From IMG/VR virus record IMGVR_UViG_3300046808_000337, positions 6,038 to 70,037 of that record: a stretch of DNA of 64,000 nt. One strand, written 5' to 3'. How positions within the stretch are numbered: the first letter of the stretch is position 1; every line of letters begins with the position of its first letter. Both the position numbers and the translations under genes were made by a program. The notes beneath the pieces were generated by a model that had not been told where the DNA came from, did no database searches, and worked only from the letters and a program-made list of their open reading frames with translations. This stretch comes from a virus. This document shows positions 27,870 to 33,908 of this stretch, one piece after another.

Positions 27870-27965
27870 AGTCAGGTGGCAGAAATGAGTAATTGCAAGT
27901 GTTCTTCAAACGGCAAGTGTACATAGCCTACCTTTTTACAGGTTCGAGTCCTGTCCTGACTACCA
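27870..27965 (+). ncRNA. tRNA-like RNA with non-canonical anticodon arm
   Basis: Acceptor AGTCAGG/CCTGACT followed by ACCA; T arm ACAGG-TTCGAGT-CCTGT; no anticodon stem-loop. Confidence 0.6.
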
Positions 27966-28018
27966 TGTTAACCCACAAAGACTAGAAACGGGTGACAGCT
28001 CGGAAAGACGAGCAATAT

Positions 28019-28088
28019 GGAGTGATAGCATAGTGGTATGCGTTGGGGTGAAATCCCAAAGAGTTAGGTTCGACTCCTGGTCTCTCCA
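28019..28088 (+). tRNA. tRNA-Phe(GAA)
   Basis: Cloverleaf: GGAGTGA/TCTCTCC (one mismatch), D arm GCAT/ATGC, TTGGG-GTGAAAT-CCCAA, TTCGACT loop. Confidence 0.8.
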
Positions 28089-28094
28089 CAACAT

Positions 28095-28186
28095 AGTCAG
28101 GTGGCGGAATGGTAGACGCGGTGAATGGCAATGTACACACCATGGGTGAGAAACCCTGCTTACAGGTTCGAGTCCTGTCCTGACTA
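28095..28186 (+). ncRNA. tRNA-Leu-like RNA with expanded anticodon loop
   Basis: Same acceptor and T arm as 27870; Leu-type D arm GGCGGAATGGTAGACGC; long variable arm; GGTG-N14-CACC in place of the anticodon arm. Confidence 0.65.
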
Positions 28187-28194
28187 CAAAACAA

Positions 28195-30376: not shown

Positions 30377-31204
30377 TCGGCACCCGCCTCGCTCGCTTGC
30401 TTGCCTAGGCTCGGGAGAAAGTAAAGTATTATGTACAGCTATAACATAGGGTATTCTTGGTATCCCATCGGTGGACAAAGTAGACTAACATACTGATAAC
30501 CAACCACATACCGCAAGAATAACTTGTAGTGCTACGTTTATGCATGCGGTTATCTATACGAAATGCAGCCCGCTCCCCTGTATTTAACTTATCATTAACA
30601 GGCCTGTGCCGTCTGCCCTGTGGCCCGCGTGTTTAGTTAATGCCCTGTTAATTCGAGGCCTAACATGCTGAGAATCAACTGCTTGGGCCAGATTCTGCCT
30701 TATTTAGAACCATTCCAAATAGCATTTTGAGGGGGCATAGAGGCATTATCTCGGGCTCGGATGTATGTAGATACCACCTAGGGCGAGAAAGTCGATTTAA
30801 AGCAATTTCCGCGTGTTTACAGGGGTTCTAGCAGGCCCGCTCTTTTTGGTTAGGGCAACCTAGCTCGGGAAGGCCTAATGTGCGGGCGCGCATGAGTGCT
30901 TTGTATGCCTATTGGCTAGTTTGTGCCGGTGCTTTGTGTGTCTCTATAGGGATCTATGGGAGGGCCTTGTGTGGGACTGCCCGCGCTCGGGGCTAGGTTT
31001 GCAGTGTTAACTGCTATGAGAACCAATAAGTTAGGTGGGAATTTCCCCAAATATAGGGTATGTTGGCCCCATATCCAAATATACCCTTAACTTTTTTGTA
31101 CACTGATTATCAACACGTTACATTAAAAACATTATGTTATGACATAAAAAGTGTTACTGAAATGTTAATGTCGAGCTCACAGCGAGCAGACCCCCCCATC
31201 TTTG

Positions 31205-31570
31205 CCCTGTTCAACGGAACAACAGCTGTACTGACCATGTATCTACCATACACAGCGCAGTTGCACGGGGGTCGCATCCGAGACAACACGACAACTAGAG
31301 GTTATAGCCACCTAGGCAAGCGAACCAAAAGGTCGCTCATCGGCTCACTAACTGAAAAGGCAGCGCAAGCGGCTGAATGAAAGGGTGTGAGATGCAAAGG
31401 CATACGACAGATAGCGGGAACGTCGATAAAGCCCGCAGTTCTTTGAAGTACTGAGACCATGTGTGCAAAGCACGCCACCGAACAGGTGGGGAAACCGCAG
31501 GGAGGCCGATGACACCCTCTACTAGTTGCGCTGATAGCCGAAAGGACGCGCCATACATGGACTCGCAAGA
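31205..31570 (+). ncRNA. Large structured leader RNA of the early operon
   Basis: Nested long-range helices, several GNRA-type loops, no credible ORF. Confidence 0.55.
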
Positions 31571-31583
31571 CAACAACTAAAAC

Positions 31584-31633
31584 AACAACGCCACCGACGG
31601 GGTGCTCATCTAGGTTCGACTCCTAGCGTTGTT
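31584..31633 (+). ncRNA. tRNA-top-half mimic 1
   Basis: 7-bp AACAACG/CGTTGTT plus CTAGG-TTCGACT-CCTAG. Confidence 0.65.
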
Positions 31634-31657
31634 CTAAACTTATACACAACACAACAC

Positions 31658-32008
31658 ATGGAAACACAGGAATTACTCAAGTCACTTAGCGGCATGCAGG
31701 TGGCTAAATTTGAAGACAACACAATCTACATGACTAACGGCATGGAGGTGCGTCACTACGTCAAACTCAACGAGTGGATAAACTTCGACTCATACGGGCG
31801 GCCCGACGATTTGGCCCTGCAAATGCAGTTGATTGTGCTATTCAACGGCGCACAGGTAATGACATGGGGCGCCGAGACCGAGCTAGACAACGCCTTGCTA
31901 GTGCGTTGGTGGAAACAACACTCGGCCATAGGTAGAAACAAGAGCCAAGAGGTGCAGCAGGACCTAGGCAAGGTCGGCTACACGCTGCTAATGCAGGGCA
32001 TTGACTAG
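31658..32008 (+). CDS. First early gene, hypothetical
   Basis: 116 aa; CAA-rich leader. Confidence 0.65.
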   Translation: METQELLKSLSGMQVAKFEDNTIYMTNGMEVRHYVKLNEWINFDSYGRPDDLALQMQLIVLFNGAQVMTWGAETELDNALLVRWWKQHSAIGRNKSQEVQQDLGKVGYTLLMQGID

Positions 32009-32059
32009 GTAAACTGACGAGTCTTCAATAGACGAAACCGCCTGCGGGCGGTCTTTACC
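32008..32059 (+). ncRNA. Type I hammerhead ribozyme 1
   Basis: GGTAAA-CTGACGA-GTCT/AGAC-GAAA-CCGCC/GGCGG-TC-TTTACC; predicted cut after C32053. Confidence 0.9.
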
Positions 32060-32072
32060 AACACACAACAGC

Positions 32073-32282
32073 ATGAAAAAACGATTCTTTTTCCGCCGCC
32101 CGTCGCAATTCTCATTCGACATGGTGGTGACAATCAACGACGACAGGCACGAAGCCAACTTCCTAGCCTCCATGGTGCGCAAGGGCTACGAGATAGTAGA
32201 CACCGAGACATACCGCGCCGAGTGCGCTATGTTCGCACCATTCAGAAAGACTAGACTATCATACGGCGGACGCAAATTCTAA
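32073..32282 (+). CDS. Early hypothetical protein
   Basis: 69 aa; CAA leader. Confidence 0.6.
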   Translation: MKKRFFFRRPSQFSFDMVVTINDDRHEANFLASMVRKGYEIVDTETYRAECAMFAPFRKTRLSYGGRKF

Positions 32283-32301
32283 CATTAACACACAACATAA
32301 C

Positions 32302-32925: not shown

Positions 32926-33849
32926 ATGAACAACAATTTCAACCTCGACAGCATGCTGTCAACAATCGCCACAGGCGCTAAGACAATCGAAACCCTCCAA
33001 GCTACAGGCCTCGATTGGCAGGTAAACAAGGTACAACTCTACACACCCGACGGCACACCTGTCGACAGCGCATGGGCCAATCAACGAGCGGACAACGGCG
33101 CTATCCTAGGCGTAATGTCCGAGCAGTACGCAGTCTTTCAGAACGAAGAGTTGGCTGAGCTATGCGAGGCAATCGCAGGCGAGTTTGGCTACACCATCCA
33201 CAAGGGCGGCGCTCTCAACGGCGGCAAGAAGGTCTACCTACAGCTGTCAGCGGGCAGCGTTACAGGTATCGGTGACAACAACGACCGCGTAGAAAAGTAC
33301 GTGACGGCGCTCAACTCATTCGACGGCAGCAGCAGCGTTTGCTTCGGGTCCCTAGGGTACACGATTAGCTGTCAGAACACGTTCTACCGCGCAGCCCGCG
33401 ACAAGGCCATGAGCCGCGTGCGCCACACCTCTAGCATGCGCGACCGAATCGAGGCAGCCAAGCACCAAATCTTGGGTATCATCAAGGCCGACGAGAGCCT
33501 GTACGACACCTTCTTCAAGATGGCCAATGCTCAGATGACCCCCGAGATTGTACGCAGTGTGGTGCAGCAGTTGACCGACGTCGACATTACCAAGACGCCG
33601 AGCAGCATCAAGGCTGACCACAGCGCCCGCAAATTCAACATCGCAAGCGACCTGCTAGACAGCATACGCCGCGAGACTTCATACAAGGGCGGCTCGCTAT
33701 GGGGACTGATGAGCGGGGTTACTCACTACACCACTCACAAAGCCTCCGCTCCTAACCGCGAGAATGGCCGTATCGAGGCTAAGATGACAGGCAACGCAGG
33801 TTCAATGGACGCGCAGGCCTTCGATATCCTAGCCAAGATTGTAGCATAG
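32926..33849 (+). CDS. DUF932/DUF945-family early protein
   Basis: GLDWQV, LGV.S..Y...QN, GALNGGKKVY, NSFDGSS, CQN and SLWGL..GVT.Y.TH motifs. Confidence 0.8.
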   Translation: MNNNFNLDSMLSTIATGAKTIETLQATGLDWQVNKVQLYTPDGTPVDSAWANQRADNGAILGVMSEQYAVFQNEELAELCEAIAGEFGYTIHKGGALNGGKKVYLQLSAGSVTGIGDNNDRVEKYVTALNSFDGSSSVCFGSLGYTISCQNTFYRAARDKAMSRVRHTSSMRDRIEAAKHQILGIIKADESLYDTFFKMANAQMTPEIVRSVVQQLTDVDITKTPSSIKADHSARKFNIASDLLDSIRRETSYKGGSLWGLMSGVTHYTTHKASAPNRENGRIEAKMTGNAGSMDAQAFDILAKIVA

Positions 33850-33908
33850 GTAAACTGATGAGACTTCAGTAGTCGAAACCACGGGGCCCTGTCCCTGTGG
33901 TCTTTACC
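33849..33908 (+). ncRNA. Type I hammerhead ribozyme 2
   Basis: GGTAAA-CTGATGA-GACT/AGTC-GAAA-CCACGGG/CCTGTGG-TC-TTTACC; predicted cut after C33902. Confidence 0.9.

Follow-up and report, generated by a model that had tools for sequence, protein, structure and literature searches.

A modular leader RNA with a host-like boxA stretch and a tRNA-like 3' module at the head of a phage early operon

What might a long, untranslated RNA be doing at the head of a phage early operon? The question is raised by positions 31205-31570 of a 64,000-nucleotide (nt) stretch of viral DNA, hereafter the window, which makes up most of the 70,037-base IMG/VR virus record IMGVR_UViG_3300046808_000337, rated 100% complete. 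Phage proteins encoded in the window include a portal protein, a large terminase and a primase/helicase, and the leader sits between a leftward gene block and a long rightward block of small open reading frames (ORFs). A preliminary description, made from the sequence alone, had read the region as a new large non-coding RNA or a put- or nut-like antiterminator, held together by nested long-range helices. We find that the leader RNA is real, conserved, modular and built of local helices, and that it lies outside Rfam. It carries the boxA of its putative host's rRNA (rrn) operons and ends in a tRNA-like module. Our favoured reading, to which we give a probability of roughly 0.55, is that of a Nus/boxA antitermination leader which RNase P would release as a discrete structured RNA. 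All features described below lie on the plus strand of the window unless stated otherwise.

A conserved RNA family built of local helices

Relatives of the leader were reached from several sides. The protein of the first early ORF (31658-32008) leads to locus L003, whose leader is 80% identical over 398 nt, the protein being only 54% identical. The downstream DUF932 gene gave ten further loci with the same or a diverged RNA at the same place, and all of these, like L003, end in a GGTTCGAnTCC T-loop with a covarying T stem (CTAGG/CCTAG versus CGGGG/CCCCG) and an acceptor-like stem. A degenerate pattern of this 3' module was found in 31 metagenome stretches; with the viral loci there are 46 hits, which reduce to 31 distinct sequences, 22 of them full-length. 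A search keyed on the T arm carries an ascertainment bias. A scan keyed only on the 5' motif, and hence blind to the 3' end, returned 15 viral stretches with 14 new loci, two of them cut short; in each of the 12 with enough downstream sequence (seven distinct sequences), the tRNA-like module is followed by CTAA and, about 20 nt further, by an ATG. The family now counts 27 distinct full-length members, 22 from the 3'-module search and five more from the 5'-motif scan. Every member has a TAnnTTTG-like promoter box, a body of ~210-470 nt, a C/A-rich linker CAACTATAGCAACG and the tRNA-like module, after which CTAA and an ATG ~20-24 nt past the acceptor end recur across the family. Direct similarity searches added nothing: blastn of 30800-32100 against the phage collection gave no match, the exact 24-mer of the T arm had 0 hits in viral contigs, and a gapped pattern of the body was found in 26 stretches, among which BLAST upheld only contigs already known.

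The bodies fall into classes. Class A/C has 14 members, marked by the ordered motifs GAGGTTA, CTAACTGA, AAGGGTG and GTTCTTTG; the eight members of class D have a body almost unrelated to A/C; and L082 and L085 form a short class. Domains are also exchanged, with L011 and L014 joining a class-C 5' half to the window's 3' domain, and L052 and L058 joining the window's 5' half to other 3' domains. The expectation of a new large non-coding RNA is borne out in that this is a conserved, covarying family to which Rfam offers no match at E <= 10 over 31205-31640; only two tRNAs reach the gathering threshold in the whole window. For the class C and D RNAs, searched in 10 loci at E <= 0.1, there is no hit on the elements themselves, and the three hits elsewhere in those loci are a tRNA, a hammerhead-like sequence and a weak tmRNA fragment. 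The same Rfam search bears out the earlier failure to recognise a group I, RNase P or tmRNA signature, and ARAGORN calls no tmRNA.

The words from which the nested helices had been drawn are all present in the sequence, namely CCATGTAT at 31235 with ATACATGG at 31553, CAGCGCA (31253) with TGCGCTG (31527), CAACTAG (31292) with CTAGTTG (31522), TCATCGGC (31337) with GCCGATGA (31505), and AGGGTGT (31382) with ACACCCT (31512). GCAA and GAAA loops exist as well, for example at 31365-31368 and 31540-31543. What does not survive comparison is the long-range pairing itself. On seven related sequences the five helices pair in 73.1% of cells, equal to the shuffled mean (282 of 500 shuffles reach it), with a covariation score of 0.151 versus 0.155 for shuffled pairs. 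Four of the five are contradicted by the relatives, which support local pairings instead. ATACATGG pairs locally with 31457-31464, with five compensatory pairs in L014, and CAGCGCA forms the 3' side of a local helix whose other side is 31228-31233 and in which compensatory changes are present. CTAG at 31295 pairs with CTAG at 31312, replaced by CTTG/CAAG in L004, L052 and L058. GCCGATGA and ACACCCT lie in or beside a conserved 10-nt hairpin loop, CCGAUGACAC (31506-31515), which is closed by three different stems (GAGG/CCTC, GGCAG/CTGCC and TCGG/CCGA). This loop is also complementary to UCAUCGG at 31337-31343, in the window and L046 only, and to the conserved GGGUGU at 31383-31388; these complementarities, formerly read as helices, may be loop-docking contacts.

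A model made of local helices behaves quite differently. Over the whole leader, and on the same alignment, it pairs 84.2% of cells versus 76.7 ± 0.9% for shuffles, and 31 of its 81 pairs are changed on both sides versus 11.7 ± 2.5, a value that none of 500 shuffles reaches; its score of 0.246 compares with 0.055-0.082 for controls in which the partners are slid. Free-energy folding gives another picture. As a whole, 31205-31570 folds no better than dinucleotide shuffles (minimum free energy -106.6 kcal/mol versus -104.42 ± 5.25; z -0.42; 33 of 100 shuffles fold as well), and the fold z of its minus strand is 0.12. The preliminary description had itself proposed this comparison as a check, which the leader fails; the comparative data say otherwise. 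Global RNAalifold across classes A and C was set aside as uninformative, because the domains are not homologous.

Read from its 5' end, the leader opens with a terminal hairpin, UGUUC-AACG-GAACA (31208-31221), which is shared by class A, class D and the short class and has a compensatory GTCC/GGAC in L045. It is followed by a 5' sub-domain (31223-31263; helices 31223-25/31261-63 and 31228-33/31253-58, hairpin 31238-42/31248-52) that was obtained by RNAalifold on five class-A sequences, has a fold z of -2.33 and shows compensatory changes (CAG/CTG versus CGG/CCG; GTCTTG/CAAGAC versus GTCTCG/CGAGAC). The model gives no pairing for 31264-31291. Next comes the CTAG...CTAG hairpin around a conserved GAGGUUAUAGCC (31295-31315), then an optional insertion hairpin (31320-31336) that is absent in L004, L052 and L058 and that pairs in both the window and L046 in spite of differing sequences (AAAA versus GAGA loop). 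A helix CTCAC/GTGAG (31344-31391) encloses the conserved core UAACUGA ... AUGAAAGGGU and an optional GCAA hairpin (31359-31374); by inspection, its register is held elsewhere by CTAGAC/GTCTAG in class C, GTAC/GTAC in L011 and GGC/GCC in L014. The hairpin GCGGG/CCCGC (31414-31436), with a compensatory GTGGG/CCCAC in L052, occupies a boxB-like position directly 5' of boxA, and its loop GTCG (31422-31425) could pair with CGAC at 31405-31408 as a pseudoknot, a pairing which is invariant among the sequences and speaks neither for nor against. The 3' domain (31452-31565) is a four-way junction with a closing helix (31452-55/31562-65 plus 31457-65/31552-60) and arms at 31475-79/31485-89, at 31493-95/31525-27 plus 31501-05/31516-20, which ends in the CCGAUGACAC loop, and at 31528-31/31548-51 with an inner GAAA hairpin. 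Eight of its 32 predicted pairs are compensatory, five of them in the closing helix 31457-65/31552-60 of L014; its fold z is -2.17, and it is swapped as a unit among relatives. For a tmRNA-like closure between a 5' GAACAACG and a 3' CGTTGTTC, the 3' strand is fixed by the search pattern and class C is without the 5' word.

Could the region instead work as DNA, for example as a replication origin or a cluster of operators, or is its complementarity chance without function? It adjoins divergent promoters and AT-rich repeats at 31040-31190, the GTTC-N4-GAAC of its first hairpin is also a DNA palindrome, and the whole-region z is the unimpressive value given above. The compensatory changes are however strand-specific and RNA-like, G-U pairs included, and the tRNA-like fold and its exchange with hammerheads (see below) make sense only as RNA, so that we regard this explanation as very improbable. 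Coding can be excluded: relatives have 1-nt and 46-nt indels in the leader region and share no ORF. Three overlapping ORFs, at 31060-31380 and, on the minus strand, at 31302-31568 and 31337-31576, were rejected as genes on account of the relatives' indels and the lack of a shared frame; the first, the only one of the three scanned, has no Pfam match. The non-coding nature of the region, its promoter box, its boxA word and the presence of genuine conserved structure had all been recognised in the preliminary description and hold; its nested drawing of that structure does not, and it had overlooked the tRNA-like 3' module.

The boxA stretch, the promoter and the host

The most telling internal feature of the leader is a boxA-like GTTCTTTGA at 31438, which with a downstream co-motif forms the element AGTTCTTTGAAGTACTGAGA (31437-31456). 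This element agrees at 19 of 20 bases with the 16S leader of G002, a Crocinitomicaceae metagenome-assembled genome (MAG) that holds locus L089, and in the related phage locus L046 the agreement is 20 of 20 consecutive bases. The G002 leader reads ...ACAAGTTCTTTGAAGTATTGAGAAA... 95 nt before the 16S gene and downstream of a TATCTTTG promoter box. An exact 18-mer from this stretch occurs in two of 41 genomes sampled from Crocinitomicaceae, once at the G002 16S leader and twice at contig ends of G032, copies that we provisionally read as rrn flanks. The shorter GTTCTTTGA is widespread, being found 63-143 nt upstream of 16S in 25 of 30 Flavobacteriales leaders sampled and upstream of 16S in 20 of 29 Bacteroidota leaders sampled. 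It matches eight of the ten specified positions of GYTCTTTAANA, a gamma-proteobacterial consensus given in PMC5725501. The window has three exact copies, of which only that at 31438 is non-coding; it lies 233 nt past the -7 box on the transcribed strand, just downstream of the hairpin 31414-18/31432-36, in a locally unstructured stretch (fold z 0.05). Of the 14 class A/C members 13 keep the word, with a single base altered in L011, L066 and L068, and it is also present in the short class; in L070 it was seen by eye in the sequence. The leader thus carries the rrn boxA of its putative host. Its place directly behind a hairpin recalls the boxB-boxA-boxC arrangement of rRNA leaders described in PMC10250234, in which boxB comes before boxA.

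This identity or near-identity with the rRNA leader of the putative host argues that the element is of the nut/rrn type and Nus-dependent rather than of the put type. In substance, the earlier suggestion of an antiterminator is thus supported, as is that of a large non-coding RNA. According to PMC5725501, a Nus complex on BoxA prevents Rho-dependent termination. Sequence identity and position together suggest that the leader would act in antitermination. The linkers of the leader RNA are C/A-rich and G-poor. RNA of that composition is what Rho prefers. A factor-independent antiterminator, in which the folded RNA binds RNA polymerase as in phage HK022 and boxA is incidental, would also fit the position directly downstream of an early promoter and the strong structure, both of which resemble put. 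We consider it improbable: no internal word is better conserved than the host rrn boxA with its co-motif, which points to Nus factors, and the bodies are not conserved between classes, unlike an RNA that has to fit a fixed polymerase surface.

The boxA may have a partner within the leader. The 5' motif UUCAACGGAAC is nearly complementary to the boxA GUUCUUUGAA, with 10 base pairs and one bulge in L046, and RNAalifold predicts a pairing of 31210-31220 with 31438-31447. Covariation is mixed, with one compensatory pair in L011 and uncompensated changes in L052, L058, L082 and L006, and the compensatory change in L045 favours the local 5' hairpin over this pairing. An 'anti-boxA' role of the 5' motif is a possibility.

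Transcription of the leader is expected to start from the box CATCTTTG (31197-31204), a variant of TAnnTTTG, which we take to be the Bacteroidota -7 promoter box. Relatives have TATCTTTG or TATATTTG, perfect TAnnTTTG is found among them at this position, and conservation with the relatives begins abruptly here. There are 69 matches to TAnnTTTG in the window versus 46 ± 6.7 in shuffled sequence (0 of 100 shuffles reach 69), often directly upstream of gene blocks. The same variant box as in the phage leader precedes a host small RNA (sRNA) gene and the rrn operon. Upstream, 31040-31196 is AT-rich, kept among relatives and contains repeated TGTTA words, along with two minus-strand TATATTTG boxes (31048-31055 and 31076-31083); it is probably a divergent promoter/operator region.

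Only two pieces of the leader are shared with host genomes, namely boxA and the promoter with the first ~20 transcribed bases. The 18-mer at 31520-31537 also occurs in two host genomes, but within a 702-aa ORF, and this match was discarded as chance. The first ~20 transcribed bases, GTTCAACGGAACAAC, recur unchanged at the start of a chromosomal sRNA gene, ~150 nt long and ending in an intrinsic terminator, that is present at 10 Flavobacteriales-type MAG loci (L088, L095, L087 and seven more) from Crocinitomicaceae, Cryomorphaceae and Flavobacteriales MAGs; it has no Rfam match at the gathering threshold. This host sRNA, carrying the same 5' motif, could in principle pair with the rrn boxA. The scan of the genome collection with the 5' motif returned 20 hits where a rough estimate expects ~17 by chance, and use was made of the 13 Bacteroidota hits with shared flanks, the seven non-Bacteroidota hits without shared flanks being excluded. 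In the Lewinella MAGs L086, L098 and L104, the same promoter and 5' motif head a ~650-nt non-coding stretch that holds two similar ~150-nt repeats and lies directly upstream of an ORF starting MSRFNIFSKAKSAPDTINRAGG. This N-terminus may be TROVE/Ro60-like, and the repeats could be Y-RNA-like genes.

The tRNA-like module and its hammerhead neighbours

Downstream of the folded body, and ~22 nt before the first early ORF, lies the tRNA-like module (31584-31634), with an acceptor AACAACG/CGTTGTT, a small middle hairpin with a 5-nt loop, a T arm CTAGG-TTCGACT-CCTAG and a discriminator C. This 51-nt version is one of three size forms in the family (51, ~60 and 78 nt). The 78-nt form has an acceptor, a 4-bp stem with an invariant (A/U)GG loop, a long arm ending in a 4-nt loop and the T arm. 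Its 13 sequences show pairing in 96.3% of cells and double-sided changes in 11 of 27 pairs, a number that none of 500 shuffles reaches, versus 0-1 such pairs when the partners are slid by 1-3 columns. The module has a 7-bp acceptor and a 5-bp T stem with a TTCRANY loop. These two helices pair in 100% of cells; two of the five T-stem pairs have double-sided changes, and in L082 the acceptor has covaried to GAAACG/CGTTTC. It is not a canonical tRNA, for ARAGORN calls nothing at 31584-31634 or in L003 and there is no Rfam tRNA hit at E <= 10, and a tmRNA is opposed both by ARAGORN, which finds none, and by the acceptor being formed locally. The Rfam mascRNA-menRNA model gives a weak hit on L003 (24.8 bits, below its gathering threshold of 42.5). 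From the fold, RNase P is predicted to cut between 31583 and 31584.

A pointer to what the module may do comes from its neighbours further down the operon. A hammerhead ribozyme lies between ORF 1 and ORF 2 (32008-32059) with a complete core, CUGACGAG...CGAAAC...GUC, and a predicted cut after 32053; it scores 28.9 bits with the Rfam RAGATH-1-hammerhead model, below the gathering threshold of 56.3, has a fold z of -2.16 and is kept in L002 and L005, where stem II covaries. A second, also with a complete core and with a predicted cut after 33902, directly follows the DUF932 gene (33849-33908; Rfam 34.1 bits, E 0.014, below the gathering threshold of 56.3). Both begin on the final base of the stop codon before them. 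Immediately behind the DUF932 gene, three loci (the window, L008 and L012) have a hammerhead, whose stems II and III covary, and eight have a mini tRNA-like element. In a strict scan, acceptor/T minihelices of 42-43 nt and hammerheads were found in the early operons of L003, L072, L074, L081 and L082. Between early genes, such minihelices (L003 1879-1920, L072, L074 and L081) have an ATG 22-23 nt later.

The spacing to the next gene is shared by both devices. The next ATG lies 20-24 nt past the tRNA-like acceptor end, and 12-18 nt past the 3' end of a hammerhead, that is, 18-24 nt past its cut site. That two unrelated RNA devices occupy one site with one spacing argues for a shared product, namely a cut ~20 nt ahead of the next ORF. 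If this extends to the module at 31584-31634, it would sever the leader from the first mRNA, and cleavage by RNase P on the 5' side and by RNase Z or exonucleases on the 3' side is suggested by its fold and by the interchange of its smaller kin with hammerheads at one site.

The position of the module also bears on a gene-specific cis-regulator, a riboswitch or attenuator of the first early ORF. The untranslated 5' position and the multi-way junctions with conserved loops are what such an element would show. However, a processing module stands between the RNA and the ORF, and there is no expression platform over the start codon. The first ORF in the window (31658-32008, 116 aa) has no Pfam family, and the first ORF 3' of the RNA varies among relatives, with at least six different starts in the sequences compared, which argues against a regulator of one gene; we therefore rate this explanation as highly doubtful.

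The window also contains a tRNA cluster at 27870-28187, with tRNA-Phe at 28019-28089, a 93-nt tRNA at 28095-28187 that is called with a 4-base anticodon, gcaa, and a third, similar tRNA-like gene at ~27870-27961 that neither ARAGORN nor Rfam calls.

A proposed mechanism and its known counterparts

Taken as a Nus/boxA antitermination leader released by processing, the locus would work as follows. A Bacteroidota sigma-A promoter would start transcription a few bases past the -7 box, and the 5' hairpin, identical to that of the host chromosomal sRNA, may protect the 5' end. NusB-S10, with NusA, NusG and SuhB, would then assemble on boxA at 31437-31456 as on rRNA leaders, and RNA polymerase would become Rho-resistant through ~430 untranslated bases and a ~12-kb operon of small ORFs. 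RNase P would cut at 31583/31584 and a 3' tRNA-end activity after 31634, freeing a ~375-nt structured RNA that is presumably stable and leaving the first mRNA with a ~22-nt leader. Further down the operon, mini tRNA-like elements or, interchangeably, hammerheads would do the same cutting job.

Several observations weigh against this reading. The whole region folds no better than shuffles. The local-helix model was derived from the same sequences on which it was counted, and L011, L014, L052 and L058 are homologous in only some of the alignment's domains, so that its excess is in part circular or noise. Its hairpin 31392-95/31400-03 is not conserved, with pairing in 42.9% of cells. As boxA and the 5' hairpin are nearly invariant, covariation gives no evidence on either. 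The eight class D members, of the 22 classified, carry only GCAGTTCTGA (GTTTTGA in L079), a word found in none of the 29 Bacteroidota rrn leaders, so that boxA is not universal in the family. RNA-library contigs, from four runs of four metatranscriptomic-labelled studies, match 31232-31600, with loose ends that match other family variants; they are a weak hint of transcription, in that ends, strand or level cannot be read from them and the libraries may contain DNA. None of these contigs falls on 30900-31228 or 31605-32300, which is not taken as a sign that the leader is more abundant than its flanks. Finally, the bodies differ almost wholly between classes, which is odd for a pure antitermination leader and suggests a further function.

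These last points lend some weight to a tentative alternative, in which the main product is a trans-acting stable phage RNA, a scaffold, decoy or sponge as has been proposed for GOLLD and ROOL. In this case boxA would only secure full transcription, or the RNA would titrate NusB/S10, and the tRNA-like end would mature or target the RNA. The bodies are long (290-549 nt), multi-domain and rich in GNRA loops; the swapping of whole domains between close phages is more readily explained by diversifying selection on a product than by a simple cis signal; a canonical boxA is missing from class D; a 5' hairpin combined with a tRNA-like 3' end is a common mark of stable RNAs; and the RNA-library contigs fall on the RNA. 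GOLLD and ROOL are described in PMC5737381 as large RNAs often near tRNAs and in prophages. Against this, the leader has no sequence or model similarity to either of them (Rfam gives no hit at E <= 10). Neither a target nor a partner was found, the 5' hairpin and boxA are all that host genomes share with it, and the RNA always heads the early operon with no terminator before the ORFs, for which a cis role is at least as economical. We consider the trans-acting RNA clearly less likely than the Nus/boxA antitermination leader, and the most serious of its competitors.

In a more speculative extension, which we hold with little confidence, the locus would be a 'pseudo-rRNA operon' assembled from copied host parts (sRNA promoter and 5' hairpin, rrn boxA, tRNA-like unit). 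Its excised leader would persist as a Nus-loaded particle, making early transcription Rho-proof and draining NusB/S10 from host rRNA operons in a form of host shut-off. The body domains would reflect an arms race, and tRNA-like elements and hammerheads would be interchangeable punctuation leaving ~20-nt leaders. If true, this would give phage hammerheads a concrete function.

The antitermination leader, if confirmed, would show how a phage shields a long, partly untranslated early transcript from Rho, and the boxA flank would serve as a host-range marker, because it matches only two of 41 genomes of one family. Possibly the most useful point is the substitution of tRNA-like elements and hammerheads at one intergenic site, which makes the long-open question of hammerhead function in bacteria and phages testable; the proposed role is mRNA punctuation, with a cut ~20 nt ahead of each ORF. 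The bodies, variable and well folded, may represent new RNA folds. Antitermination by boxA and Nus factors is textbook knowledge for rRNA operons and for the lambdoid phages of enterobacteria. In literature searches that did not extend to supplementary files, we found no Bacteroidota phage that copies the host rrn boxA into a large folded leader and no description of this leader RNA family, a kind of search by which absence is not provable.

Among known systems, the closest are the boxA/Nus leaders of rrn operons, together with the boxA elements of lambda nut, suhB and CRISPR leaders. The phage leader has the same GTTCTTTGA and ...AYTGA co-motif as the Bacteroidota rrn leaders sampled, its boxA is promoter-proximal, on the transcribed strand and preceded by a hairpin, and it heads a long, largely untranslated and structured transcript that also holds a tRNA-like unit. 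Here, by contrast, boxA stands ~230 nt inside a folded RNA far larger than the usual short leader, the RNA heads protein-coding phage genes, no phage N-like protein is implied, and class D relatives do without boxA. HK022 put is likewise a structured RNA just past an early promoter that would act on the transcribing polymerase. It is ~70 nt long with two stem-loops and needs neither boxA nor Nus factors, whereas the phage leader carries the boxA of its putative host. GOLLD and ROOL, as described in PMC5737381 and PMC12286853, are similarly large, ornate, phage-associated RNAs beside tRNAs with a variable and a conserved half. The leader shows no covariance-model similarity to them, is smaller, and differs in its fixed position at the head of an operon, its boxA and its fused tRNA-like end. 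The tRNA-like module resembles the mascRNA of MALAT1/MEN-beta and plant mitochondrial t-elements (described in PMC1920247) in mimicking an acceptor and T arm without an anticodon loop, and in being placed where RNase P and RNase Z would make ends, both as the 3' terminus of a long non-coding RNA and in gaps between cistrons. It differs in its phage context, its three size forms and its place outside the Rfam mascRNA family, and its cleavage here is predicted. Lastly, the phage hammerheads (RAGATH-1-type/type I) share with the tRNA-like elements the operon, the syntenic site and the distance to the start codon, and are distinguished from them in being self-cutting rather than cut by host enzymes.

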